Positions 508 to 25,464 of a stretch of DNA of 45,950 nucleotides are shown one piece after another. A program made the translations under genes and the position numbers. The notes below the pieces were generated by a model that saw only the letters and a list, made by a program, of their open reading frames with translations, made no database searches and was not told the DNA's origin. Origin of the DNA: Promethearchaeota archaeon (GTDB lineage: Archaea; Asgardarchaeota; Lokiarchaeia; Sigyniarchaeales; SOKP01); NCBI GenBank assembly GCA_016930515.1, contig JAFGGO010000051.1:1-45950 (forward strand), read 5' to 3'. Every line of letters begins with the position of its first letter. Positions within the stretch are counted from its first letter, which is position 1.

Positions 508-3500
508 ATGAAAAGAAATTCAATTAAAAAAATCAAACCAAAAACTTTAGCTCTAGGTTCATTTTTAATACTTTTTTTATTCATGAATACTGTGATAATG
601 TTTTTTCCACCATCAGTGATGGCTAAACCATTCAAAGGTGTTTATGAAGGGAATTTAAATGAAGTGGAAGATAAAACCGATCAAATTAATCTCTATTCGC
701 AAAGAACAAGAACCCTTGAATTTGAAGTCTCAAGTGAAAATATCGATATTTCCGAACTGATCGCACCAAATGGGGAACTTTGCAATCGAATTACGCTAAA
801 AGATGCTAATGGTTTGGGTCAAGCAGGAAAACCTCAATTGCCCTATAAGACGCTACAAGTCTTGGTACCATTTGGATACGAATTAAAAGATATAGAATTC
901 GATCTGCGTCAATCGAATATTGAATTTTTACAGCATAAATTGGAAGCCTCAAGCCAAAAAATGATTTTGGGTTCTGATGAAACACCCGAATATAAGTTTG
1001 ACTCATATATTTATGGCTCTAATAATCTTTTTCCTGGCAATTATTACTCCGTTGAGGGTGTTTATGGCTTAAGAGGATATCAAATTCTTGTGCTCAATTT
1101 GTTTCCCGTCCAATACATTCCAAGCGAAAACAAGCTTTTGATTGTTAAAGACATGAGAGTAAAAATTAACTTAGAAAAAGATGTTAATTTGGTCGTGGAA
1201 GACAGTCTCTTGAGAGGTTTTAACAAGGACGAAGAAATGGTCTTATTGATGGTACAAAATCCCGAAGATATTACTTCTTATCGTAACATTCTCAGTTCAA
1301 CTCTTGATTTGCCTCCGGCGTCGTACGATTACGTGATTATCACGAACGACGCCTTGAAGAATTCTGGTGGCGCCTATACCTTCCAAGATCTTGCTGACTA
1401 TAAGAACTCAATCGGAATAAGTACCACGATCGTCACGGTTGAAGATATATATGCGAATTATTCAGGTGTCGATAACCAGGAAAAGATACGTAATTTCATT
1501 ATTGATGCCTATAACGAATGGGGGATCGAATATGTGCTTCTTGGAGGAGATGGAGACGGTACACCAGGAGGAGATTCAATCATTCCTACAAGAGGTTTTT
1601 ATGATGGACAAGTAGGCGATACTAATGTCCCATCAGACTTGTATTACGCAGCACTCGATGGGAATTGGAACGACGATGGTGATTCGTATTGGGGTGAAAT
1701 AGGCGAGGAAGATCTTTACGCTGAAGTCTATGTCGGACGAGCTCCCGTAGATTCTGAACAAGAATTATCTAATTTTATCATGAAGACGCTCGCTCACGAA
1801 ACGACCTCCGATGCATACTTATCCGAAGCACTCATGTTAGGAGAGTATTTAGGATCCCATTTTGGAATCCCCTGGGGAGGGGCTTCTAAGGACGAGGTTA
1901 AGGACGGCTCAACCAACAACGGATACGAAACAGTAGGATTTCCGCCAGAATACAACATGTCCACCTTATACGATCGCGATTTGGATCCCTATGAATGGGA
2001 CAGCTCGGACCTCATTCCCATTTTAAATAGCGGCGTTCACGTCATAAATCACCTGGGACACGCAAATGTCAATACCGTCATGAAAATGACCATAAGCGAA
2101 GTAGATTCTCTCGTGAACGATAAATACTTTTTTGTATATAGTCAAGGGTGCTATTGTGGGGCCTTCGACAATAGGAGCGATTATGGTTACTACTATGATT
2201 TTGATTGTATCGTTGAACATTTTGTGACATCAGAACACGGCGCTTTTGCGTTCGTTGCCAATAGCCGTTATGGTGTTGGCGATGCATATGGGACCAACGG
2301 TCCTTCTCAATTTTTTGATCGCCAATTCTTTGATGCTATTTTTAACGAATCGATCGTAGAAATTGGAAGGGCAAATCAAGACTCGAAACACGACACCATT
2401 CCCTTTTTAAGCCAAGATTATGTGCGGTTTTGCTATTATGAATTGAATCTATTTGGAGATCCTACCGCGAATTTACTACCACAACCAAACGAAATCGCTC
2501 CGATCCTTACCAGCGAATCGGTAGCGCCCAAAAAGGGTTATCAAGACACTCAAATTACCTTCAGAGTGAATTATACGGACTCTGATAATAATGCCCCTTC
2601 TAAAATCCATGTAATCATTAATGGGACCAAATATAATATGGAGAAACAAGATCAAAGTGATAAAAATTATACGGACGGTTGCATGTATCAACTCACGACT
2701 TATCTACAATCGGCGAGCAATAATTACTCCTATTTTTTCCAATGCAGTGATGGAAAATTTATGGTGTCCACAGCTGAATATGATGATATTGAGATTTTAT
2801 ATTCAAATGCGATGGCGCCATCTTTAAGTAATAGTCAACTTAATCCTCCTCAAGGATACACAAACGCAACAACCTTCGAATATGCTATAACCTATACTGA
2901 TCCAGACAACAACGCTCCCTCGAGCGTGAATGTCACCATTGATTCCTCAAGTACATTTGAGATGATAAAACAGGATCCTCTGGATGATAACTACATAGAC
3001 GGATGCCTTTATAGATATTCAACGACTTTTGAAAACGCTGGTATACACGATTACTCCTTCTCTTGTTCCGATGGTGTTTATTATTATCAAACAGGGACCG
3101 AAAGTGGACCGGATGTGGAAGTCTTGATTTTACCTTTCGATGGGATGTATATTAATTATATGTTTACTTTAAGGGGTAACGAGGTGCTCAGTAGGTTTGA
3201 ATATAGTTATCAAGACGATTCGACATTCCTAGTCAATTGGATGATATATGATCCAATGATTTCTGGATGGTATCTTTCCTCCTCTTACGAAATCGATGTA
3301 GAAACGAGATTGATGAAAGTTGTTTACGATGGTGGTATTAATTTTGGTAACTATCACACGCCTATGTGGATCTATCCAAATGTTCTCGTTGGAGATCTCG
3401 TCCCGATCGCAGTGGATGGGGAGGGAGATCACGACTTTCTTGTTTCTGAGGAAAAATCGGTATATATCCAACAATTTGGAGATGTTGATATCTTTGAACT

Positions 3501-5367
3501 CGTCGATCTTGACTTGCCTGGGGGAATTGCGTGGTATGAAAAGACCTCCGGAATTCTTTTAAACGGTTCCTATCCCTTTTATAGTGGTACTTACGAATAT
3601 TCCTTCAATCTATTAAGCACGAACGTGGATGTAGATGTATCAGGAGGAGATGATCCTATCGCTGATTTCATCGCCGTTCCAAACCCCGTTGTATTGGGCA
3701 ATTCCGTTCAATTCATGTTCTCGGGAAATCCTGGTCATGGAACAACAAGGTATACTTGGGACTTCGGCGACACTAGTCCTCTATCGTACGAGCAGAATCC
3801 AATACATATTTATGCTACCCTTGGAACTTACCAGGTAACGCTAAGCATATCCGACTCGAACGGTGGTTTTGATTCAGAGTATAAATACATTCTAGTAGAA
3901 GGAAATTTAATACCCTGTGCTGATTTCTACGCAAACACTACAGTAGTTAGCGTTGGAGAGCCAATCCAATTTACATTCAGCGGAAGCCCGGGAAACGAAC
4001 CCTGTTATTATGTGTGGATTTTTGATGATGGTGGACTTTCTCAAGAAAAAGATCCCGTGTATCAATTCACCACTCCAGGTACTTATAGTGTAGAAGTGTA
4101 TGTATCTGATGTAAATGGTGATTCGGATAATATGTACAAGTCAAACTATATAACAGTATACGCTGGTACCGCATCTCCCGAAGCGGAATTCGAGGCAAAC
4201 TCAACGACCGTTAGATCAGGAGAATATGTGCAATTTACTTTCACTGGAAGCGAAGGGGACGCTCCTGCGACATTTTTCTGGGACTTTGGCGATGGTCTGT
4301 GGTCTGATGAGAAAAATCCCGTGCATCAATATATGAGTATTGGTAGTTATACGGTTTCTTTAGAAGTATATGATTCGGACGGCGACTTGGCCTACGAGGA
4401 AAAGAATCCATATATCATAGTTTATACTGGTACCAGTTATCCCATGGCAGACTTTATTGTAAACACAACGACTATAAATCCAGGAGAATACGTGCAATTT
4501 ATTTTCACGGGAAGCGAGGGAGACGCTCCTGCGACATTCTTCTGGGACTTTGGCGATGGTGGATGGTCTGATGAGAAAAATCCCGTGCATCAATACACGA
4601 GTACTGGTAGTTATATGATTTATCTAGAAGTATATGATTCGGACAATGATTACAATTATAAGATAGAATATGATTTCATAAGGGTAGTTGAAGAAATCTT
4701 ACCCATAGCTGATTTCTATGCCAATACAACCACAATCGTTGAAGATGAATATGTGAGGTTCATATTCAATGGCACCATGGGAAACGCTCCGGCAAGCTAT
4801 ACTTGGGATTTTGGTGATGAAACACCAGTTATCGCAACATCATCTCCAATAATAGACCACACATACACTTCAACTGGAACTTACACAATAACCTTATTAA
4901 TCACTGATGCGGACCTTGATAATGATATTAAAATCAGAATTGACTATATTACGGTTCTTGAAGATCACTTTCCCCTAGCGGATTTTCATGCAAATTCAAC
5001 AATGATCAATCCTGGAGAATTCGTTCAATTCACCTTTAATGGAAGCGAGGGTGATGGTCCAGCAATTTACATGTGGAATTTTGGAGATGGAATTACGATC
5101 TCATACGAACAAAATCCCATCCACCAATACACCTCAGAGGGCGTTTACAATGTGACTTTAACGGTTATTGACTCAGATGGTGATTCTGATCAAGAAGTAA
5201 AATATTTCTATATGATCGTTATTAACGAAGATCGCGATATTACCGTTCCAAGATTCGACTTGATCACCGTTTCAGGATTCGACTTGATCATCGTTCTGGG
5301 CGCTACATCGCTCATTGGATTAATTCTCGTCGTTATAAGGAGAAAATATGGATTCGATTTTCAATAA
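508..5367 (+). CDS. C25 (gingipain-like) cysteine peptidase with propeptide, about 6 PKD domains and a C-terminal membrane anchor
   Basis: N-terminal hydrophobic signal and propeptide-like GKPQLPYKTLQVLVP. C25 motifs YDYVIIT, YVLLGGD, SDLYYA, VGRAP, with catalytic-type NHLGH and SQGC. Six W(D/N/I)F(G/D)D PKD repeats, then a TM helix followed by RRK. Confidence 0.9.
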   Translation: MKRNSIKKIKPKTLALGSFLILFLFMNTVIMFFPPSVMAKPFKGVYEGNLNEVEDKTDQINLYSQRTRTLEFEVSSENIDISELIAPNGELCNRITLKDANGLGQAGKPQLPYKTLQVLVPFGYELKDIEFDLRQSNIEFLQHKLEASSQKMILGSDETPEYKFDSYIYGSNNLFPGNYYSVEGVYGLRGYQILVLNLFPVQYIPSENKLLIVKDMRVKINLEKDVNLVVEDSLLRGFNKDEEMVLLMVQNPEDITSYRNILSSTLDLPPASYDYVIITNDALKNSGGAYTFQDLADYKNSIGISTTIVTVEDIYANYSGVDNQEKIRNFIIDAYNEWGIEYVLLGGDGDGTPGGDSIIPTRGFYDGQVGDTNVPSDLYYAALDGNWNDDGDSYWGEIGEEDLYAEVYVGRAPVDSEQELSNFIMKTLAHETTSDAYLSEALMLGEYLGSHFGIPWGGASKDEVKDGSTNNGYETVGFPPEYNMSTLYDRDLDPYEWDSSDLIPILNSGVHVINHLGHANVNTVMKMTISEVDSLVNDKYFFVYSQGCYCGAFDNRSDYGYYYDFDCIVEHFVTSEHGAFAFVANSRYGVGDAYGTNGPSQFFDRQFFDAIFNESIVEIGRANQDSKHDTIPFLSQDYVRFCYYELNLFGDPTANLLPQPNEIAPILTSESVAPKKGYQDTQITFRVNYTDSDNNAPSKIHVIINGTKYNMEKQDQSDKNYTDGCMYQLTTYLQSASNNYSYFFQCSDGKFMVSTAEYDDIEILYSNAMAPSLSNSQLNPPQGYTNATTFEYAITYTDPDNNAPSSVNVTIDSSSTFEMIKQDPLDDNYIDGCLYRYSTTFENAGIHDYSFSCSDGVYYYQTGTESGPDVEVLILPFDGMYINYMFTLRGNEVLSRFEYSYQDDSTFLVNWMIYDPMISGWYLSSSYEIDVETRLMKVVYDGGINFGNYHTPMWIYPNVLVGDLVPIAVDGEGDHDFLVSEEKSVYIQQFGDVDIFELVDLDLPGGIAWYEKTSGILLNGSYPFYSGTYEYSFNLLSTNVDVDVSGGDDPIADFIAVPNPVVLGNSVQFMFSGNPGHGTTRYTWDFGDTSPLSYEQNPIHIYATLGTYQVTLSISDSNGGFDSEYKYILVEGNLIPCADFYANTTVVSVGEPIQFTFSGSPGNEPCYYVWIFDDGGLSQEKDPVYQFTTPGTYSVEVYVSDVNGDSDNMYKSNYITVYAGTASPEAEFEANSTTVRSGEYVQFTFTGSEGDAPATFFWDFGDGLWSDEKNPVHQYMSIGSYTVSLEVYDSDGDLAYEEKNPYIIVYTGTSYPMADFIVNTTTINPGEYVQFIFTGSEGDAPATFFWDFGDGGWSDEKNPVHQYTSTGSYMIYLEVYDSDNDYNYKIEYDFIRVVEEILPIADFYANTTTIVEDEYVRFIFNGTMGNAPASYTWDFGDETPVIATSSPIIDHTYTSTGTYTITLLITDADLDNDIKIRIDYITVLEDHFPLADFHANSTMINPGEFVQFTFNGSEGDGPAIYMWNFGDGITISYEQNPIHQYTSEGVYNVTLTVIDSDGDSDQEVKYFYMIVINEDRDITVPRFDLITVSGFDLIIVLGATSLIGLILVVIRRKYGFDFQ
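4241..4644 (+). repeat. Near-identical intragenic duplication of PKD modules 3 and 4
   Basis: About 4241-4380 versus about 4505-4644, 264 bp apart. Both encode FTGSEGDAPATFFWDFGDG.WSDEKNPVHQY with few nucleotide differences. Confidence 0.85.
5242..5289 (+). repeat. 24-bp tandem duplication in the sorting-signal region (TVPRFDLI / TVSGFDLI)
   Basis: accgttccaagattcgacttgatc followed by accgtttcaggattcgacttgatc (22 of 24 positions identical). Confidence 0.9.
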
Positions 5368-6264: not shown

Positions 6265-7365
6265 TTAAAAAGGAACACCAATTAAATAAAGATATATTAT
6301 CGCTACAATACCGCAAGCGAGTGGATTTAAATAATTGTCACTTGCGCGTATTTTTGTGCTGGTTGCTATATCAACCAAGAATACTACTACCGAAAGAATA
6401 GTTCCAAGCGATAACAGGATTTCTAACGACCAAACGGATGGATTTGAAAATCCAAATGTGTTGGAGAAAAATCCCCCGAATAACGTGCATAGGAATGCAA
6501 AGAAAGAACCTCCAATATATCCCTCTATTGTTTTAGTACTACCCTTTGGAAATTCGTGGCTAAAACCTATTTTCTTTGCGATGATCCCAAATATCGAAGC
6601 CATGCCGTCCGCAACAGACGCTATTAACAAAATTATGAAAAACAAGGGAAAGTCGAATAGAAGGAAGGGTGCAAATCCAAACACCATTATAGATGTACTA
6701 GAAAATGTGTCAAGTTCGGTGGGTGTTAAACCCCTTGCATAGAGTTCTCCTACGATTCTTGGCATGTAGGAATAATCAAATAACCTAATAAGATCACCAA
6801 TAAGAAAAGTTAATGCAAAATCCATTCCGAATATAACGACAAAAAATAAAGCATAGTGTTTCCACCTACCTTGATAAGAATATACTGGGTTGTTATTTAG
6901 GATCCAAAAAACCATGACTATTCCGCTAACAACTGCGAGTGGAAGTAAGTGAGTGAACTTTCTTTTTACAGAAGGCTTGTATTGCAACTTTAAACGTTCA
7001 CAAAAAAGCTCGTAATTATTTACATTCTGTAACAATTCGGGATTTTTTATAGTTTTAATTTTTTGAGAGAGCGCCCATATTGACATTACAAACATTACGC
7101 TTAGAATACCTACCATTCCATTCAGAGCAAGTTCTAATGTTAGAGACGATCGGGCTATTCCGGTTAAATTATTACCAAATTTTAACACGTATAAATGATA
7201 TAATATTCCCAAAAGCGCGCAAAATAGTCCATTAACGATTTCATTCAATTTTTTATAAGGATCCTTGTTCTTTTGGACCCAAGTTCTTTTCACGTGAATA
7301 AAAATTGCCGCACTTAATGTAAAACACACGATTGTAACAGGAAGATTCAAGAGGAAGAGTATCAT
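6265..7365 (-). CDS. CTP-dependent lipid kinase, dolichol/phytol/DGK1-type (cytidylyltransferase superfamily), multi-TM
   Basis: Motifs RKFTHL, ADGMASIFG, KTIEG and a C-terminal DN. Many TM segments. Confidence 0.8.
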   Translation of the reverse strand: MILFLLNLPVTIVCFTLSAAIFIHVKRTWVQKNKDPYKKLNEIVNGLFCALLGILYHLYVLKFGNNLTGIARSSLTLELALNGMVGILSVMFVMSIWALSQKIKTIKNPELLQNVNNYELFCERLKLQYKPSVKRKFTHLLPLAVVSGIVMVFWILNNNPVYSYQGRWKHYALFFVVIFGMDFALTFLIGDLIRLFDYSYMPRIVGELYARGLTPTELDTFSSTSIMVFGFAPFLLFDFPLFFIILLIASVADGMASIFGIIAKKIGFSHEFPKGSTKTIEGYIGGSFFAFLCTLFGGFFSNTFGFSNPSVWSLEILLSLGTILSVVVFLVDIATSTKIRASDNYLNPLACGIVAIIYLYLIGVPF

Positions 7366-13134: not shown

Positions 13135-13677
13135 ATGATTTTGATGAGTATAAAAGTTATGGCATTTGTACCGTTAGAGGAGACCTTTAAATTTAGTGGT
13201 ACTACAAAAGCTCTCGGTGTTTTGATAGCAAGCACGGTAACAAGTGTGATTCTTTTACTTATTATTTATCCGTTCGTAAACGATTATGACTCGTTTTGGC
13301 TGGGAAGTGCATTTCTACTCCTGCCCCTTGCCTTAATAGGTGCCGTTTTTTTGATAAACTTTCTCTTTCAAGTTATTAAATGTACTTATAAAAAACCATC
13401 AAGTTCCTGCCATTCTGGTCAACCATCGGGAAAAAAATCGAGTAAGAAGATCAGTATTAAATTAAAAATAAAAATTTCGCTTGGAGGTACTAGTGTAACT
13501 GGTGGAACCATAAGTTTTTGGTTTTTTTCCGATATAACTGCAAATATAGGAGATGTATTGTCGTTTTGGGCTGGTGTGGGTTTCTGGGTATTATGTATTG
13601 TTATTGCAATTGGTTATTTCTGCGTTGTTTTCGAGGTTAGATGTTGGTTCGTAAAACCTTCAAGTAGTTGCCATTAA
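13135..13677 (+). CDS. Membrane protein with an internal repeat; each half ends in C-x3-KPSSSCH
   Basis: Several hydrophobic segments. DSFWLG...KCTYKKPSSSCH versus LSFWAG...RCWFVKPSSSCH. Confidence 0.7.
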   Translation: MILMSIKVMAFVPLEETFKFSGTTKALGVLIASTVTSVILLLIIYPFVNDYDSFWLGSAFLLLPLALIGAVFLINFLFQVIKCTYKKPSSSCHSGQPSGKKSSKKISIKLKIKISLGGTSVTGGTISFWFFSDITANIGDVLSFWAGVGFWVLCIVIAIGYFCVVFEVRCWFVKPSSSCH

Positions 13678-13781: not shown

Positions 13782-14993
13782 CTATATTATATTCAAATCC
13801 TTCCCAATTTTCGTGATAATATCAAGTGCTAAATCGACAAGCTCATCGTTCATGGTTGCCATACATGATGTTCTAAGCATTTCACGGCCTATTGGGACGG
13901 CTGGAGATCGAATTGGGTTGGTAAATACGCTAGTAGGCGTTTCTTTAAAGAGTTTATTGAAATATTCGAACATTTTCAGCTTATTACCAATAATAATCGG
14001 GATTATCGCTGATTGAGAACATCCTATGTGAAAACCTGCTTCTGAAAGTCCTTTCCTCATTCTTTCCGAGATCGATAGTAGCTTTTTTTGATATCCATCG
14101 TCCGATTCGATAATATCTAGCACGGCTAAAACCGTGGCGCAGACGGAGGGTGGTGGTGAGGCTGAAAAAATGAACGATCGAGCGTTGTGCTTTATCCAAT
14201 TGCAAATTTCCTCGCTTCCTGCAACGAATCCTCCAATACTCGCAAAACTCTTTGAGAAAGTCCCCATGATCATGTCTATATTTTTTTGACAACCTAAATG
14301 ATGACAAGTTCCCCTACCGTGGTTTCCTAAAACCCCCAATCCGTGAGCGTCGTCTAAATAAATCAGGGCATCGTAATCTCCTGCTAAATCCACAATATGA
14401 TCTAAAGGAGATACATCGCCCTCCATTGAAAATACGCCTTCGGTAATTATAATGCCCCTGCCTTTGGGGATCAGCTTAAGCTTAGCTTCGAGATCCTCCA
14501 TGTCACAATGTTCGTAAATTAATTTGTGTTTTTGACTTATACCCCCTAACTTAACCCCGTCGATGATCGAGGCGTGATTAGCCTTATCGGAAATTACCCA
14601 CTCGTCTTCTTCGGTTAGAATGGAAGAAATCGCTCCGAGATTTGCTTGCATGCCCGTTGAAAAAACAACGCTCTGCTCACACCCTAAGAATCTGGCTAAA
14701 CGCTTTTCTAATTCGAGATGTAATTCCATGGTCCCATTTAATAGGCGTGAACCCGTAGTTCCAACCCCATATTCCTCAATGGCGTGCATTGCCTTTCTTT
14801 TTACATCGGGATGAGATGTCATGCCAAGATAATTATTGCTACCAAGCATGAGAACGTCTCTGTTATCCATTACGACTCTTGGATTTTGTTCGCCTTCGAT
14901 CTTAAAGAAATAAGGATAATAATGGAGTTTTTTAGCAAGTGTCGGGAGGCCTTCCTTCCAAAAACTCTCAAATTTTCGTTTAATTTCGTTCAT
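13782..14993 (-). CDS. PLP-dependent alpha-oxoamine synthase, serine palmitoyltransferase-like (bacterial SPT type)
   Basis: YPYF, GSNNYLG, GSRLLNGT, NHASIIDG, GVFSMEGD, DDAHGLGVLG, GTFSKS (PLP lysine), RSFIFSAS. Confidence 0.85.
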   Translation of the reverse strand: MNEIKRKFESFWKEGLPTLAKKLHYYPYFFKIEGEQNPRVVMDNRDVLMLGSNNYLGMTSHPDVKRKAMHAIEEYGVGTTGSRLLNGTMELHLELEKRLARFLGCEQSVVFSTGMQANLGAISSILTEEDEWVISDKANHASIIDGVKLGGISQKHKLIYEHCDMEDLEAKLKLIPKGRGIIITEGVFSMEGDVSPLDHIVDLAGDYDALIYLDDAHGLGVLGNHGRGTCHHLGCQKNIDMIMGTFSKSFASIGGFVAGSEEICNWIKHNARSFIFSASPPPSVCATVLAVLDIIESDDGYQKKLLSISERMRKGLSEAGFHIGCSQSAIIPIIIGNKLKMFEYFNKLFKETPTSVFTNPIRSPAVPIGREMLRTSCMATMNDELVDLALDIITKIGKDLNII

Positions 14994-15191
14994 AGTTTTT
15001 TTTCGCTCGTTTCAATTATTGATTTGAATTTTTTTCAATTTCACATACTTTCCCGCTTTCTATTCGAAATAATATCGATTAATGAAATCAAATGAGCGTT
15101 GTTTTAAAAACATGTGTGGGAAATAAATGAACTTTTTCAAGAACATTCTTATATTTTTAAATCAATTATAATTTAACGTACGATTTATAGT

Positions 15192-16229
15192 TCAAGAGCG
15201 AAGGAAGCACTGAAGATCCTCTCCAAACTCGGAATTAGTAAGCGCCTTGGCAATAGCCCGACATCCTCCACAAGTCGTAATGTGCTTGCAATTCCCGCAT
15301 TTTCCCTCGTAGTCATCCCGGTTTCGAAAAGCGATCATGCATGGAGAATTCCATAGTGTTTCAAAAGTATCGGTTTTAATATTGCCAATTACCGAGTTTA
15401 ACCTGCGACACGGCATGACGTCTCCGTTTTCCACGACGCAAATGCCGCTGATTCCGGCGCTACACCCGTGGGTGACGTTCTCACCACAATAAGTAGTCCA
15501 AAGTGGATCGTGCAACGCAAAACGAATAAATTTTCCGTATTTTTTATTTATTTTTTTGATCTTCTTAAAAACCTGTTTAAGCTCGTCTTTCGACAATATT
15601 TGATCTTTTAACAATATCCCATTGCCCTCTGGAACCAATCTTCCGAACGAAAATTCATTAGCACCATGAAGGATAGCGTGTCGAACGATCCCCTCAATAT
15701 CTTTGGAGTTCCACCTTCCAAGCGTTGTCATGATAGTCGTGAATAATCCTGCTTTTGAGCATTCTTCGATACCCTTGGTTGCCTTTTTAAACGAACCAGG
15801 ACCGCGAATAAGATCGTGAGAGGATTCCAAACCGTCAATGCTTATTTGAGCGATATTTAATCCCGCACCAACTAACTTTCTTACCTTGTATTCGGTAATT
15901 AGCGTTCCATTTGAAAGTATCATTGTTACTAAACCAAGATTTCTTGCGCTTGAAATATAATCGTATAAATTTGGATCCAATAGGGGTTCTCCTCCCGTAA
16001 AATAAATTTTTCCCTTCCATCCAAAACCTTTAACAAAAGACTGAAATTTTTCAATTATTTCAAATATTTCGTTAGGTTTGAGAAGATTTATTACTTTATG
16101 CTCTAATCCTCTCTCGTAGCAATGCGCACATCTCAAATTGCACTTATTATTGATGTGTAATTGCAAGTAAAACAAGTTTCTTGACTTGATTGTTTTTTGA
16201 GAACAATTCTTTTCACTATATCCTATCAT
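15192..16229 (-). CDS. Radical SAM/SPASM domain protein (peptide/protein maturase type)
   Basis: CNLRCAHC, FTGGEP, QISIDG. SPASM cysteines CSAG...GDVMPC...CGNC-x5-CGGC...DLQC. Confidence 0.92.
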   Translation of the reverse strand: MIGYSEKNCSQKTIKSRNLFYLQLHINNKCNLRCAHCYERGLEHKVINLLKPNEIFEIIEKFQSFVKGFGWKGKIYFTGGEPLLDPNLYDYISSARNLGLVTMILSNGTLITEYKVRKLVGAGLNIAQISIDGLESSHDLIRGPGSFKKATKGIEECSKAGLFTTIMTTLGRWNSKDIEGIVRHAILHGANEFSFGRLVPEGNGILLKDQILSKDELKQVFKKIKKINKKYGKFIRFALHDPLWTTYCGENVTHGCSAGISGICVVENGDVMPCRRLNSVIGNIKTDTFETLWNSPCMIAFRNRDDYEGKCGNCKHITTCGGCRAIAKALTNSEFGEDLQCFLRS

Positions 16230-16304: not shown

Positions 16305-17267
16305 TCATCCTCCACATCCTCCGCATCCCCCTCCACCTCCTCCACCTCCTCCACACCCTCCACATCCACTGAAATATCCCAAACTCCTTCTTCTCTCATC
16401 TTTTGCCTGCTCTTTTTCCTTCCATTCCTCAAGCGTTAGCCTGCTATTTCTTATGTGAAGTATCACTTTTACTATAACTACAATTCCAATAAAAGACACT
16501 CCGATGAGGACTAGTAATATGATATAGATACTTACCCAGGGTACCGTTTTCGTGAGGTTCGGCGTGATGTCGAAAGCAAGGCTACTTGAAATCGAATCAG
16601 TTTGAACAAGGGTATACACCCAATAATCACCTTCCTGCTCGAAGCTTGTTTGTCCTGGAGCGGATGTTCGAACTGTTCCAGCATCGTAAGAAGCTGGGAA
16701 ATTGATGGTATATTCTGCTCTACTCACGGGAATGGAAAACTTGCCGAAATTATTGAGAAATAGCTGTGAGCAAGAAAAAGTTTCGATTATCCAGTTTTTC
16801 ATGAGGAAAGACATTGTGATCGTTTTTACCCCTGTAAATTCGGTGTGATAAAACTTGATTTCTATGTAATATTTGTTGTCGCGACCTTCGAATTCGCTAT
16901 AATCCCAATTTAACTGGGATCCTGTATCGTCGTAAACGCGAATGGATGATTCCTGAATCGAAGGTGCATTTCCGAGTGGAAAGTATCCGGGTGGTCGAAA
17001 TCGTTTATAACCCTCGTATTTCGTTCCGCTCGTGACATTATAAGTAATACTCACTCGAGCCAGAACATCAAGATCGTAAATTTCTAAATACACCTCGTAA
17101 TTAGATATTGTATAAACCGAATCGGCCAAGCGAATCGCTTCCTCTTCTTCAATTATATCATGCTCTTGGGTAATTATTTGCGCTGCGACCAAACTTGGAG
17201 CAAGAAGCGGTATCAATAACAAGAAAAATCCACTAATTACTTTCTTTATTGAACTATTTCTTAACAA
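16305..17267 (-). CDS. Single-pass membrane protein (DUF2207-like ectodomain) with a cytoplasmic GCGGC-G9-CGGCGG tail
   Basis: TTG start with SD-like AGGTGG, signal peptide, beta-rich ectodomain, TM helix (WVSIYIILLVLIG...), charged linker, then a Gly/Cys tail resembling those of TIGR04222-type proteins. Confidence 0.8.
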   Translation of the reverse strand: MLRNSSIKKVISGFFLLLIPLLAPSLVAAQIITQEHDIIEEEEAIRLADSVYTISNYEVYLEIYDLDVLARVSITYNVTSGTKYEGYKRFRPPGYFPLGNAPSIQESSIRVYDDTGSQLNWDYSEFEGRDNKYYIEIKFYHTEFTGVKTITMSFLMKNWIIETFSCSQLFLNNFGKFSIPVSRAEYTINFPASYDAGTVRTSAPGQTSFEQEGDYWVYTLVQTDSISSSLAFDITPNLTKTVPWVSIYIILLVLIGVSFIGIVVIVKVILHIRNSRLTLEEWKEKEQAKDERRRSLGYFSGCGGCGGGGGGGGGCGGCGG

Positions 17268-17465: not shown

Positions 17466-17926
17466 TTGTCAAATCCTATGCTTAATGTGGATCTGTCCCT
17501 TCTTAGTCCTGCTACTATCGAGGACCTTGATCTCCTTGCTCAAATGAACGAAGAATTTCGTAAAGCCGAACGAGCCGACGACGATATGACTATCGAAGAA
17601 ATAAAGTCCCGGATGCGATCGATTATGGAAGAAGATGCTTTTTGCGTGTATTTACTTGCCAAAGAGGATGATATTTACGGATATACCGTCATCGATCTCT
17701 CTCGAAAACGGGATTATCTTCGTCATCTCCTAATTCGTGAAGAATACCGAAAATGCGATACGGAAAGCGGCTAATCCAATTAATGATGCAAAATCACGGA
17801 ATATCTTCCTTGGAAATCGATGTTTTCGTTTGGAACGAGGAGGCCATCAAATTTTACGAGAAATTAGGCTTTACCAAGCGATGTTATCAAATGCGTTTAA
17901 GTTCCTCTTCAAAACGCCAAGATTAA
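17466..17926 (+). pseudogene. GNAT acetyltransferase with a 1-bp frameshift
   Basis: Inserting one G at about 17757 restores motif A (EYRKCGYGKRL) and continues EIDVFVWNEEAIKFYEKLGF to TAA 17924-17926. Confidence 0.85.
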
Positions 17927-18013: not shown

Positions 18014-18571
18014 TTATGTGGACCAATACAACTTGAATTGCGTCACATCGTCTCCTTCCCAGGATTTTTTAAGGAATGTAAAATTTACCTTTTTTTTTAA
18101 GCACAGTTCAAGTGCTCTTTGTGTCCATCCAATTGTCGTGTAATACCACAATTCAAACTTGGGATCGAAATCGCTTAAAGTGTAGATTAACTCGTTATCA
18201 GTTATCCACTCTAACGAGGTGCTTCCAAAATTAAAAAGCATCGTGTGAAATCGGGGGTACATTTGCACGAGTTTTCGAGCGTCACCGCCTGTAATGAGAT
18301 TCTTGTATATCGATGTCATCACAGTTTCACCAAAGTTCCGTCCCCATTTAATAACAAGCTCGCGATTGTTCTTGGCAACGACTTTAATTAAAGTGTTATA
18401 AAGTTCGAAATATACTTCGTACGAATACCAAATTGAGTCCATAATGCGTTGATTCAAGTAATCTTTTGCCTTGTCCGATAACAACTCGTTATATTCTTTC
18501 TCGTGGACCTTATCCGACTTAATTCCCTTCGTAATTACTTTTACCAATGTTCCTTTAACTTTTCGTTCCAC
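18014..18571 (-). CDS. V4R/DUF2378-like paralogue 1
   Basis: VKGT...IMDSIWY...WGRNFG...YPRFH...NFG...GW...KKSWEGDD.TQF.L.W pattern shared with three neighbours. GTG start. Confidence 0.75.
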   Translation of the reverse strand: MERKVKGTLVKVITKGIKSDKVHEKEYNELLSDKAKDYLNQRIMDSIWYSYEVYFELYNTLIKVVAKNNRELVIKWGRNFGETVMTSIYKNLITGGDARKLVQMYPRFHTMLFNFGSTSLEWITDNELIYTLSDFDPKFELWYYTTIGWTQRALELCLKKKVNFTFLKKSWEGDDVTQFKLYWST

Positions 18572-19966: not shown

Positions 19967-20542
19967 TCAAGGCGTCCAAAACAGCTTGAACTGCGTGTAA
20001 TCGTCTCCCTCCCACGATTTTTTCAAGAACTCATAATTAACCTTCCTTTTTAAGCACATTTCGATTGCTCCTTGTGTCCACCCCACGTTTGAGTAATACA
20101 ACATCTCAAAATTCTTATCGTATTCCTCATTGTATGTGAGAAGTACTTCGGAATCAGAAATCCATTTTACCGTCAAAGCTCCGAAATTATAAAGCATTTG
20201 ATGAAATCGTGGATAAATTTGCATTAATTTTTTAACATCGCCTCCGAGGATGAGATTTTTATATATAGATCCCATTATTTTTTCCCCGAAATTCCTTCCC
20301 CATTTAATCATTATCTCGCGATTGTTCTTGCCAACCACCTTCATTAACGCTTTATAAATCTCGGCATAAAGTTCATATGAATACCAAACGGAATTCATAA
20401 TGCGTTGGTTCAAGAAATTTTTTGCTTCGCCCGAAAGTATTTCTTCGTATTCTTTCTGATGAATTTTATCTGATCTAACACCAATCACGACGTCTTTTAC
20501 GGCCGTTCCTTTCACTTTACGCTCCAACATTATCACTCTCAC
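19967..20542 (-). CDS. V4R/DUF2378-like paralogue 2 (probable start at MLERK, about 20530)
   Basis: Same motif set as 18014-18571. Confidence 0.75.
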   Translation of the reverse strand: MRVIMLERKVKGTAVKDVVIGVRSDKIHQKEYEEILSGEAKNFLNQRIMNSVWYSYELYAEIYKALMKVVGKNNREIMIKWGRNFGEKIMGSIYKNLILGGDVKKLMQIYPRFHQMLYNFGALTVKWISDSEVLLTYNEEYDKNFEMLYYSNVGWTQGAIEMCLKRKVNYEFLKKSWEGDDYTQFKLFWTP

Positions 20543-20976
20543 ATATATAAATTAATATTACTCCTATAATGAAAATTAAACTTTATAAATCTATAATATG
20601 ACTTAGAGTTGTTCGCTGGAGGATCATTACAAAATTCTGAAAAAATCATACGCTTTGAGATTTTGCGAATTAAATTTAAAGATAAGAATGATAAACAAAA
20701 AATTGGTAGAATTCTCCCTATCCTTTCAAGAGTCCTCACCGGAAACACAAGATTCCCGTCGAAACTTTCAACCTTTTAAACGAAAAAGTTGGGGATCGGC
20801 GCCGATTCGACCTTGGAGGTGGTTTAAAAGATACCGAGAATAATTTTCAAATTACCGAAGACATCATAGAAAGATTAAATAATTTCAGTAAGATAACAAA
20901 CTTCACCTCATTGTCAGAAATTTGTATTATGCATGTAATTTGGCTCTAACGAGTTTTTTCCTTTCATGTGATTAAC

Positions 20977-21537
20977 TCAAGGTGCCCAAAACAGCTTGAA
21001 TTGACCCTCTTTATCCCCTTGGGAGGATTTTTTCAGGATTTCGAAATGTACTTCTTTTTTTAGGCACATCTCGAATACTCGTTGCGTCCATCCTATATTA
21101 CTATTGTAAAACAACTCGAAATTTGGATCGAAGTCTTTTAAAGTATAAAGCAATTCATGATCTGAAATCCATTCAAATGAAATGGTACCAAAATTATAAA
21201 ACATTGAATGAAATCGAGGATATTTTTCCGCAAGTTTTTTCACATTTCCCTCAGCAATGATGTTTTTATAAACCGCAGACATTACATTTTCACCAAAGTC
21301 TCGTCCCCACTTAGTCACGATTTTTGGATTGTTTTTAGCAACTACCTTGATTAACGCTTTATATAACTCACAATACACATCCCACGAATACCATATGGAA
21401 TCCAATATGCGTTGATTCAAGAATTTTTTAGCTCTATCCGAAAGGATCACATCGTATTCTTTCTCGTGAGTCCTATCCGATTTAATTCCTTTCACGATAT
21501 CTTTCAATAGAGATCCTTTTATCTTACCCTCCATCAA
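20977..21537 (-). CDS. V4R/DUF2378-like paralogue 3
   Basis: Same motif set. Its 3' end tcaaggtgcccaaaacagcttgaa is identical to that of paralogue 4. Confidence 0.75.
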   Translation of the reverse strand: MMEGKIKGSLLKDIVKGIKSDRTHEKEYDVILSDRAKKFLNQRILDSIWYSWDVYCELYKALIKVVAKNNPKIVTKWGRDFGENVMSAVYKNIIAEGNVKKLAEKYPRFHSMFYNFGTISFEWISDHELLYTLKDFDPNFELFYNSNIGWTQRVFEMCLKKEVHFEILKKSSQGDKEGQFKLFWAP

Positions 21538-21641
21538 TAATACCTCAAAAAGAAAGCTTATTCAAGATAAAACTACTACAATAATAAAAATGTATTCATA
21601 TAAATTTATGTGATATGTTTTGATATACGCTCTCGGTTAAA

Positions 21642-22199
21642 TCAAGGTGCCCAAAACAGCTTGAACTGCGTTACATCGTCTCCTTCCCACGATTTTTTCA
21701 AGAACTGGTATTCAACCTTCTTTCTAATGCACATTTCTATGGCTCTCTCGGTCCAACCTACATTTGAGTAATAAATCTTGTCGAATTTCGATTCAAAGTT
21801 CTTATAGGTAAAAAGCACCTCGTTTTCTGAGATCCACTCCAACGATAAAGTACCAAAATTGAATAAGATTTTGTGAAATCGTGGGTACATTTCTAAAAGT
21901 CTTTTTACATTTCCTTCAACGATGAGGTTTTTGTAAACGGTGCCCATGACTTTTTCACCAAACTCGCGTCCCCATTTAATTACATATTCGGGATTATCCT
22001 TGGCAAAAACCTTGATTAAGGCGGCGTATAGCTCGATATAATTCTCATAGGAGTACCACACGGAATTCATGATGCGTTCGTTCAAGTACTCTTTTGCTGC
22101 GCTTGAAAGCATTTGTTCGTATATGCTTTCGTGAGGCTTGTCCGATCTAATTCCTATTACGAGATCTTTAAGGGCCGTTCCTTTTACCATACGTTCCAT
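21642..22199 (-). CDS. V4R/DUF2378-like paralogue 4
   Basis: Same motif set as the other three. Confidence 0.75.
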   Translation of the reverse strand: MERMVKGTALKDLVIGIRSDKPHESIYEQMLSSAAKEYLNERIMNSVWYSYENYIELYAALIKVFAKDNPEYVIKWGREFGEKVMGTVYKNLIVEGNVKRLLEMYPRFHKILFNFGTLSLEWISENEVLFTYKNFESKFDKIYYSNVGWTERAIEMCIRKKVEYQFLKKSWEGDDVTQFKLFWAP

Positions 22200-24918: not shown

Positions 24919-25464
24919 TTAAGAAACATAATCATGTCTTTGATATAATTCGGCGATTATGGCTTGAAACCCTTCATTAACGCCTTTTCCTGTTTTAGCA
25001 GATGTTAAATAATACGCAAGAACATTCATGTTATTGATAATGTCGTGGAGTTCGGAAAGATCAAGCTCGTCCTCCCTCACGAGATCAACTTTATTAGCAA
25101 ACACGACCACTGGAACTCCATTGCAGTATTTTTCGAGTTCTCCGTGCCACGACTTCAAGTGGAAAAGGCTTTCTTCTCCTAGGTTGTTTTCTTCCAGGCT
25201 ATATACAATAATACACGCTTTAGTTTCCTTGTAAAAAATTGGTTTTAAAAAATCGAAATCGTTTTGACCTGCGATGTCCCAAAACAAAAGTTCTATCGTG
25301 TTTCCTTCTACATTTTCTGTAAATCTCGAAAATTGGGCTCCAATCGTTTTAATATAATCTTTCTCAAAAGCACCTTTCGTAAATTTCTTAATTAAGGATG
25401 TTTTTCCGACTGCGCCATCTCCTATAACAACAATCTTGAATTTAAATATCAGGTTAGCATTCAT
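24919..25464 (-). CDS. Rab-like small GTPase
   Basis: GDGAVGKT, YIKTIG, WDIAGQ, NKVD, SAKTG. No C-terminal prenylation motif. Confidence 0.93.
   Translation of the reverse strand: MNANLIFKFKIVVIGDGAVGKTSLIKKFTKGAFEKDYIKTIGAQFSRFTENVEGNTIELLFWDIAGQNDFDFLKPIFYKETKACIIVYSLEENNLGEESLFHLKSWHGELEKYCNGVPVVVFANKVDLVREDELDLSELHDIINNMNVLAYYLTSAKTGKGVNEGFQAIIAELYQRHDYVS

Follow-up and report, generated by a model that had tools for sequence, protein, structure and literature searches.

A serine palmitoyltransferase-like alpha-oxoamine synthase from an Asgard archaeon, a candidate long-chain-base synthase of an archaeal clade

Sphingolipids count as lipids of eukaryotes and, in a more recent view, also of bacteria, and archaeal membranes are thought to be built from isoprenoid ethers. 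To our knowledge, Archaea are not established sphingolipid producers. The subject here is a gene for an alpha-oxoamine synthase (AOS) resembling serine palmitoyltransferase (SPT), located on the minus strand of contig JAFGGO010000051.1 from a Promethearchaeota archaeon; the window is the whole stretch of that contig that was analysed, 45,950 nucleotides in length. A full-text literature search returned no paper tying SPT or sphingolipids to Asgard archaea or to other archaeal AOS, and a metagenome-lipidome survey of the Black Sea reported no archaeal metagenome-assembled genome (MAG) with Spt-like proteins (Ding et al., 2024, PMC11334938).

The closest described relatives are the SPTs of the Bacteroidota type, soluble enzymes of ~400 aa known from Sphingobacterium multivorum (PDB 3A2B/8GUH) and from Bacteroides/Parabacteroides (NF047600). 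The active site involves a lysine that binds pyridoxal phosphate (PLP), a histidine that stacks on it, an aspartate contacting the pyridine N1, a histidine contacting O3' and an arginine for the carboxylate (PMC10196870). In the S. multivorum enzyme the acyl site is walled by the tyrosine of a YPYF motif and by Phe83, the residue after GSR; the substrate is surrounded by Gly80-Ser81, Thr241, Ser243, Lys244 and Met271-Ala274, and contacts with the hydroxyl of serine run chiefly via the PLP phosphate and water molecules (PMC10196870). A second system is the cysteate fatty acyltransferase (CFAT, also SulA or CapB) of sulfonolipid synthesis, which joins an amino acid to a fatty acyl thioester to give a long-chain base and has Gly81-Ala82 in its substrate site (PMC13692747). 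Eukaryotic SPT (LCB1/LCB2, SPTLC1/2), the glycine C-acetyltransferase Kbl of threonine catabolism and BioF of biotin synthesis have the same fold, the latter two sharing PLP chemistry and 32-39% identity with the window enzyme. Finally, an uncharacterised archaeal operon, found in Thermoplasmatota and Heimdall-type MAGs, combines an acyl ligase, an orthologous AOS with the same active-site motifs and a reductase.

The window gene is a single open reading frame (ORF) spanning exactly 13782..14993, which encodes 403 aa, starts with ATG and contains no internal stop. Pfam Aminotran_1_2 (PF00155) covers residues 46-393 (E 7.6e-55, 187 bits against a cut-off of 19.7), more than 100 full-length homologues of 397-409 aa align with the protein end to end at 55-72% identity, and the AlphaFold2 (AF2) model is confident (predicted local distance difference test 93.9, predicted template modelling score 0.91). 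The Pfam match, the homologues and the model show that the gene is real, and its reading frame is intact. Its product is a member of the alpha-oxoamine synthases, a family of fold-type I PLP enzymes, and an alignment of 38 rows shows no variation at K248, H140, D214, H217 and R374, which match the anchor sequences. All the motifs quoted in the original prediction are present in the translation, namely YPYF (within YYPYF, residues 25-29 at the N-terminus), GSRLLNGT, HGLGVLGNHGRGTC, GTFSKS and RSFIFSAS.

Subfamily scoring places the enzyme nearest to SPT of the Bacteroidota type, which is its best match by hidden Markov model, by PDB sequence and by fold, at ~40-44% identity. Among the NCBIfam models NF047600 ranks first with 434.3 bits, followed by a BioF/Kbl-related subfamily (381), Kbl, BioF, beta-proteobacterial SPT (338), alpha-proteobacterial SPT (282) and ALAS, none of the curated NCBIfam cut-offs being reached. 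The two Kbl models give 362 bits (NF005394, cut-off 460) and 295.6 bits (TIGR01822, cut-off 493), the BioF model TIGR00858 gives 357.7 (cut-off 426.45) and the 5-aminolevulinate synthase (ALAS) model TIGR01821 gives 260.6 (cut-off 338.55). In the PDB sequence search S. multivorum SPT is again best (328 bits), with a promiscuous Thermus BioF/Kbl enzyme next (280); Sphingomonas SPTs reach 226-245, E. coli Kbl 236, BioF ~190 and eukaryotic LCB2/SPTLC2 158-174 bits. CFAT (PDB 7U7H, 28EH) belongs to the same SPT-related superfamily, but scores 216 bits where SPT scores 328. A fold search with the AF2 model returned 8GUH as the top match (TM-score 0.93, root-mean-square deviation 1.8 A).

The motifs common to the archaeal AOS and verified SPTs are YPYF, GSN.Y.G, G..GSR(L/F)LNGT, GTFSKSFAS, RS(F/Y)IFSAS and L(L/I)R.S.MAT, the columns having been compared with sequences of P. 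distasonis, B. finegoldii and Prevotella, and the catalytic His/Asp/His/Lys/Arg set is likewise shared. Residues of the SPT acyl wall and substrate site are retained in the window enzyme (the Tyr of YPYF, the Gly-Ser of GSRLLNGT, the Thr, Ser and Lys of GTFSKS, and IFSA), with Phe83 of the S. multivorum enzyme replaced by Leu. Where CFAT carries Gly-Ala, the window AOS has Gly-Ser, as SPT does. Kbl reads SVRFICGT, GTLGKA and LFSNS and lacks YPYF; BioF, which has other variants, and ALAS also deviate at the YPYF and GSR.LNGT positions. The original prediction had treated these motifs together with GTFSKS as an SPT signature. This holds for the combination but not for GTFSKS alone, which also occurs in a Pseudalkalibacillus BioF within a bioA-bioF-bioD operon; judging from the columns compared, it is YPYF, GSR(L/F)LNGT and IFSAS in combination that track the SPT-like group. 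Since the recognition of serine is mostly mediated by water and phosphate, amino-acid specificity is not legible from the sequence.

For the phylogeny, the references comprised E. coli Kbl and BioF, a Bacillus Kbl adjoining Tdh, BioF from the bio operons of a Bacillus relative and a haloarchaeon, two ALAS, and the AOS of P. distasonis and B. finegoldii, whose genes adjoin a diacylglycerol (DAG)-kinase-family gene, a neighbour that the window AOS does not have. The P. distasonis protein passes the curated SPT cut-off (683.6 > 640 bits). Homologues were sampled as 139 of the 150 nearest cluster representatives at 50% identity from an exhaustive HMMER search, and CFAT, the alpha- and beta-proteobacterial SPTs and eukaryotic LCB2, which are not in the trees, were compared by PDB scores only. 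At 50% identity the archaeal relatives collapse into a single cluster (544 bits), and the one that follows, which is non-archaeal, stands at 372 bits; because of this drop beyond its single representative, the archaeal clade is sharply delimited and, being purely archaeal, separate from the Bacteroidota-type enzymes. FastTree (184 rows) recovered a purely archaeal clade (support 0.999) with an SPT-containing group as its sister, weakly supported at 0.665. IQ-TREE under LG+C20+F+G4 with posterior mean site frequencies (68 rows, ALAS anchors as outgroup) also recovered the archaeal clade (96/73), lying within a 47-row group (100/99) to which 28 uncharacterised representatives and the verified SPTs also belong. 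Outside this group fall Kbl (100/96), the groups of all three BioF anchors, ALAS and the third AOS paralogue of the genome, and the approximately unbiased (AU) test rejects joining the archaeal clade to Kbl (delta lnL 94.8, p 0.00017). For all representatives near the archaeal clade the SPT model is the best, yet they remain below its cut-off (451-625 bits). Members from Asgard and Thermoplasmatota interleave within the archaeal clade, implying transfer between the two phyla.

These results support the placement of the AOS in an archaeal clade of Asgard and Thermoplasmatota sequences within the SPT-like branch, outside Kbl, BioF and ALAS. The proposal that it is nearer to SPT of the Bacteroides/Sphingobacterium type than to BioF, Kbl or ALAS is thus borne out by model scores, PDB search, maximum-likelihood tree and AU test, and the clustering with BioF or Kbl that had been named as its refutation is not seen. 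As a separate observation, uncharacterised SPT-like AOS genes are carried on plasmids of Priestia megaterium, where an acyltransferase and a methyltransferase gene border it, and of Aureispira, where its neighbour is an NAD(P)-dependent oxidoreductase gene; their products are 45-46% identical to the window protein.

Could the enzyme be a housekeeping Kbl or BioF that merely resembles SPT? Databases annotate many clade members as BioF ('8-amino-7-oxononanoate synthase') and both models still give 358-362 bits, but each falls short of its curated cut-off; similarly, the second-best PDB match is the promiscuous Thermus enzyme and the fold is equally near Kbl, but the tree and the AU test separate the sequence from both families. 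The gene content of the source genome, a MAG of 4.0 Mb that is 94% complete, points the same way. An E. coli BioB query found no match among its ORFs, BioA and BioD queries gave weak generic matches only, and there is no true Tdh, the best ORFs being generic zinc-dependent alcohol dehydrogenases (196 and 187 bits, where the cut-offs stand at 380 and 458). With BioB and a true Tdh not found in the genome, the BioF and Kbl roles are thus left without partners, and the earlier remark that no bio or tdh genes adjoin the AOS holds for the window. Moreover, the clade occurs in only ~25 of 301 sampled Asgard genomes, and of the 69 that belong to the window's own family just 1 has it, a distribution ill-suited to a housekeeping role; in their operons its orthologues are accompanied by a long-chain acyl-CoA ligase and by a ketoreductase instead of Tdh or bio genes. 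A housekeeping identity is therefore regarded as improbable.

The strongest functional evidence comes from the operon context of the orthologues, for which 20 Asgard loci were retrieved and their neighbours clustered, and six contigs of the Thermoplasmatota type were also read. All six of the latter show an AMP-binding ligase, the AOS and a short-chain dehydrogenase/reductase (SDR) in this order, with gaps of tens of bases. The best matches of the ligase are long-chain-fatty-acid-CoA ligases (480 bits), and the best family of the SDR is the 3-ketodihydrosphingosine reductase KdsR (326.8 bits, the next family at 275.8), although the KdsR cut-off of 400 is missed. Among the Asgard loci, 8 of 20 keep one partner beside the AOS: five have a classical SDR directly upstream and on the same strand, one more has it next to the AOS but on the opposite strand, and a 600-aa AMP-binding enzyme, again matching long-chain-fatty-acid-CoA ligases, lies directly upstream in two. 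For the Heimdall-type SDR the top NCBIfam match is a generic oxidoreductase (250.9 bits), with KdsR at 244.9. The ligases and SDRs are homologous across both phyla (53% and 43% identity, respectively), and the module has therefore travelled together. Read in this way, the operon would encode enzymes that activate a fatty acid, condense it with an amino acid and reduce the resulting 3-keto compound, which are the opening steps of sphingoid-base synthesis. The SDR was also considered as an SDR-type threonine dehydrogenase; this was rejected, as it is a classical adh_short SDR with KdsR as its best or near-best family and is not GalE-like as that Tdh is.

Further genes accompany these modules. 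A divergent sulfotransferase (PF13469) flanks ligase-AOS-SDR in 4 of the 6 Thermoplasmatota-type loci, several of which also have hexapeptide-repeat acyltransferases, and this suggests that the product of such clusters may be a sulfated and/or acylated long-chain amino alcohol. The same clusters carry a saccharopine-dehydrogenase-like gene, and one locus has an arylsulfotransferase. In another Asgard family a divergent GNAT gene and a downstream MFS transporter recur beside the AOS. The GNAT neighbours were considered as an analogue of ceramide synthase and rejected: the three types (beside the Asgard AOS loci, ArsN1-like in Thermoplasmatota, and that of the window lineage) are unrelated small proteins, 26-31% identical over short stretches, and no conserved N-acyltransferase was found among the GNAT neighbours of the AOS loci compared. 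An ATC_hydrolase-family gene (PF14196) adjoins the clade AOS in two Heimdall-type loci, and adjoins a paralogue in the related assembly GCA_016839425.1 that corresponds to the second AOS of the window's genome.

On balance, we lean towards the window AOS being a long-chain-base synthase, a soluble enzyme with the homodimeric AOS fold that belongs to the archaeal SPT-like clade. It is 55-65% identical to the operon-type orthologues and has identical active-site motifs. In the proposed mechanism, an amino acid, for which L-serine is the best guess, would form an external aldimine with the PLP bound to K248, and decarboxylative condensation with a long-chain acyl-CoA would yield a 3-keto long-chain base resembling 3-ketosphinganine; reduction by a KdsR-like short-chain reductase would then give a sphinganine-like amino alcohol. 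What is inferred here is the length of the acyl chain, the amino-acid substrate and that the window copy retains the ancestral activity. A broader proposal is held more tentatively, at somewhat less than an even chance: Asgard and Thermoplasmatota members of the clade may make sphingoid-type bases through the ligase-AOS-KdsR-like module, in some lineages with further N-acylation and sulfation, which would be the first sphingolipid-like class of lipids in Archaea, and the window's lineage may have expanded the synthase to 2-3 paralogues.

Several points weigh against a long-chain-base synthase. The score of 434.3 bits to NF047600 lies below the curated cut-off of 640. The fold does not discriminate (TM-score 0.92-0.93 to Kbl and the Thermus AOS, 0.93 to SPT). 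The branching order inside the 47-row group is a polytomy, and the group also includes many uncharacterised enzymes. Cysteate acyltransferases are nearly as close in the PDB sequence search (~216 bits), and the chemistry may thus differ. Beside the window copy, which coexists with one to two paralogues, the operon partners have been lost; the window encodes no such partner of the AOS, be it a ligase, a reductase or an N-acyltransferase. A search of the genome gave the best KdsR-like SDRs (217.6 and 170.5 bits) on other contigs; they and the best ligase, also elsewhere, share no more than 36-43% identity with their operon counterparts, which for the SDRs is at best about the cross-phylum similarity (43%). 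No match to a TLC ceramide synthase (PF03798) was found in the genome, a result made uninformative by control genomes that were silent too. Nor does any DAGK-type kinase in the genome exceed its cut-off, all DAGK_cat matches being sub-threshold. Lastly, SPT-like genes in Nostoc are reported to make no sphingolipid (PMC8895605).

The main rival reading, about half as probable, is that the same Claisen-type chemistry serves a different product: another amino acid (glycine, alanine, threonine or cysteate), an acyl thioester that is short, medium or unusual, or both would be used for a specialised metabolite. In this lineage such a pathway might involve the genes next to the AOS (Table 1). The gene directly upstream encodes a radical SAM/SPASM protein whose best NCBIfam match is the ACGX-system type (190 bits against a cut-off of 400), and a small membrane protein with C-x3-KPSSSCH ends lies on the other side. 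The same order is kept in GCA_016839425.1 (radical SAM 71%, DUF2207-like 63%, Cys-motif membrane protein 42% identity). However, the synteny with that assembly extends to a Flavin_Reduct gene and the Arf-PAS gene, which speaks for common descent of the whole region and does not demonstrate functional coupling. A general partnership of radical SAM/SPASM with AOS was rejected: the link is confined to this one near relative and absent from 20 other orthologous loci. The two genes are also set apart by a 198-bp spacer, which would be long enough for a promoter of the AOS's own. The lineage has 2-3 diverged paralogues (~70% identity), as is typical of neofunctionalisation, and the SPT-like group has many fused or uncharacterised members; against this, the active-site and acyl-wall residues of the window enzyme equal those of the operon-type orthologues. 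The illegibility of serine specificity from motifs leaves room for another amino acid, with the SPT-like Gly-Ser speaking against cysteate, and the sulfotransferases and hexapeptide acyltransferases of the Thermoplasmatota clusters point to a decorated product.

The small Cys-motif membrane protein lies two genes from the radical SAM/SPASM protein, which is of a peptide-maturase type, with the AOS between them; the two may form a maturase-substrate pair. The short ORF at 17466..17774 (+) gives only weak GNAT signals in Pfam, matches a GNAT acetyltransferase of the syntenic locus and is probably truncated or has a mis-called start.

The MAG carries three AOS genes. Besides the window copy, a 70%-identical paralogue lies at the start of contig C4 (653-1873), and a distant one lies on contig C129 (3042-4280), its best model being BioF at 362 bits, below the cut-off. 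The latter adjoins a thiolase (acetyl-CoA C-acyltransferase) gene and is of a type (~39-43% identity) widespread in Asgard genomes. GCA_016839425.1 carries three paralogues of the archaeal clade. Some AOS is present in 215 of the 301 sampled genomes of the same phylum; the ~25 with the SPT-like clade (55-63% identity) belong mostly to two other families, and the remaining genomes of the window's own family, including one of the same genus, have only the ~39%-identity type. Named relatives come from Heimdall-, Thor- and 'Asgard group' MAGs and from many Thermoplasmata/Thermoplasmatota MAGs.

This patchy distribution over two archaeal phyla indicates horizontal transfer, and together with a gene GC content of 0.413 above the window mean of 0.348, and a source MAG of 190 contigs with 5.3% estimated contamination, it raises the question of a bacterial contaminant contig or a recently transferred, functionless gene. 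Either is very improbable. The 46-kb contig is Asgard-like, with genes for an Arf-PAS GTPase and a Ras-family GTPase; an independent assembly shows the same gene order; the ORF is intact with every catalytic residue; and the close relatives are all archaeal, non-archaeal sequences appearing only with the 372-bit cluster.

The remaining features of the window are of other kinds. A CTP-dependent lipid kinase had been proposed ~6.4 kb from the AOS; the polytopic membrane protein at this place shows only an insignificant CTP_transf_1 signal, which does not sustain the assignment, and a role like that of a dolichol or polyprenol kinase is possible but unconfirmed. The gene at 508-5367 (+) encodes 1619 aa, in which a C25 peptidase domain of the gingipain type is combined with its propeptide and with six PKD domains. 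Three tandem paralogues of ~186 aa lie at 19967-22199 (-), about half of their residues identical by eye and without Pfam or NCBIfam match, and a neighbouring gene (18014-18571) gives a weak haem-NO-binding (HNOB) signal.

Table 1. Positions of the AOS gene, its catalytic residues and selected neighbours in the window.
Feature	Position	Strand	Basis or remark
AOS gene, archaeal SPT-like clade	13782..14993	-	ORF list, Pfam, NCBIfam, PDB, tree, alignment, AF2
AOS catalytic residues	K248 (PLP Schiff base, codon 14250-14252), H140, S189, D214, H217, R374	-	Alignment and codon mapping
AT-rich spacer, 198 bp, from radical SAM gene to AOS start	14994..15191	-	Sequence read
Radical SAM/SPASM protein, 345 aa, directly upstream	15192..16229	-	Pfam Radical_SAM and SPASM
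DUF2207-like membrane protein, 320 aa, same syntenic block	16305..17267	-	63% identity to 314-aa syntenic gene
Convergent small membrane protein bearing two C-x3-KPSSSCH ends	13135..13677	+	42% identity to 173-aa syntenic gene
Short ORF, 102 aa, matching GNAT acetyltransferase of syntenic locus	17466..17774	+	55% identity over 91 aa
Polytopic membrane protein	6265..7365	-	CTP_transf_1, E 0.58, 10.4 bits, insignificant
Fusion of Arf-family GTPase and PAS domains, 945 aa	7470-10307	-	Also kept in syntenic GCA_016839425.1
Separate Ras-family small GTPase	24919-25464	-	Typical Asgard 'eukaryotic signature' gene, as is Arf-PAS

The comparison with eukaryotic SPT bears on the suggestion, made in the original prediction, that the enzyme is relevant to the origin of eukaryotic membranes. 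The AOS resembles eukaryotic SPT in its fold, its GTF(S/T)KS-type lysine motif and, putatively, its reaction class, and differs from it in having no membrane anchor, small subunits or heterodimer partner. To human SPTLC2 the archaeal AOS scores 169 bits, whereas the P. distasonis SPT scores 219. There is thus no sign in these sequences of the archaeal clade as ancestor of eukaryotic SPT. Because the nearest relatives are bacterial, the similarity to eukaryotic SPT is lower than that of bacterial SPT and the distribution in Asgard archaea is patchy, an archaeal source of eukaryotic sphingolipids is not supported by the present data.

The window enzyme is a new archaeal member of a known family, with archaeal sphingoid-type lipids as a testable possibility. 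An archaeal SPT-like clade, with partners for the first two steps of the pathway and for acyl activation, bears on the 'lipid divide' debate about the Asgard archaea. If the proposal is true, fatty-acid-derived amino-alcohol lipids would occur in organisms thought to use isoprenoid ether membranes.

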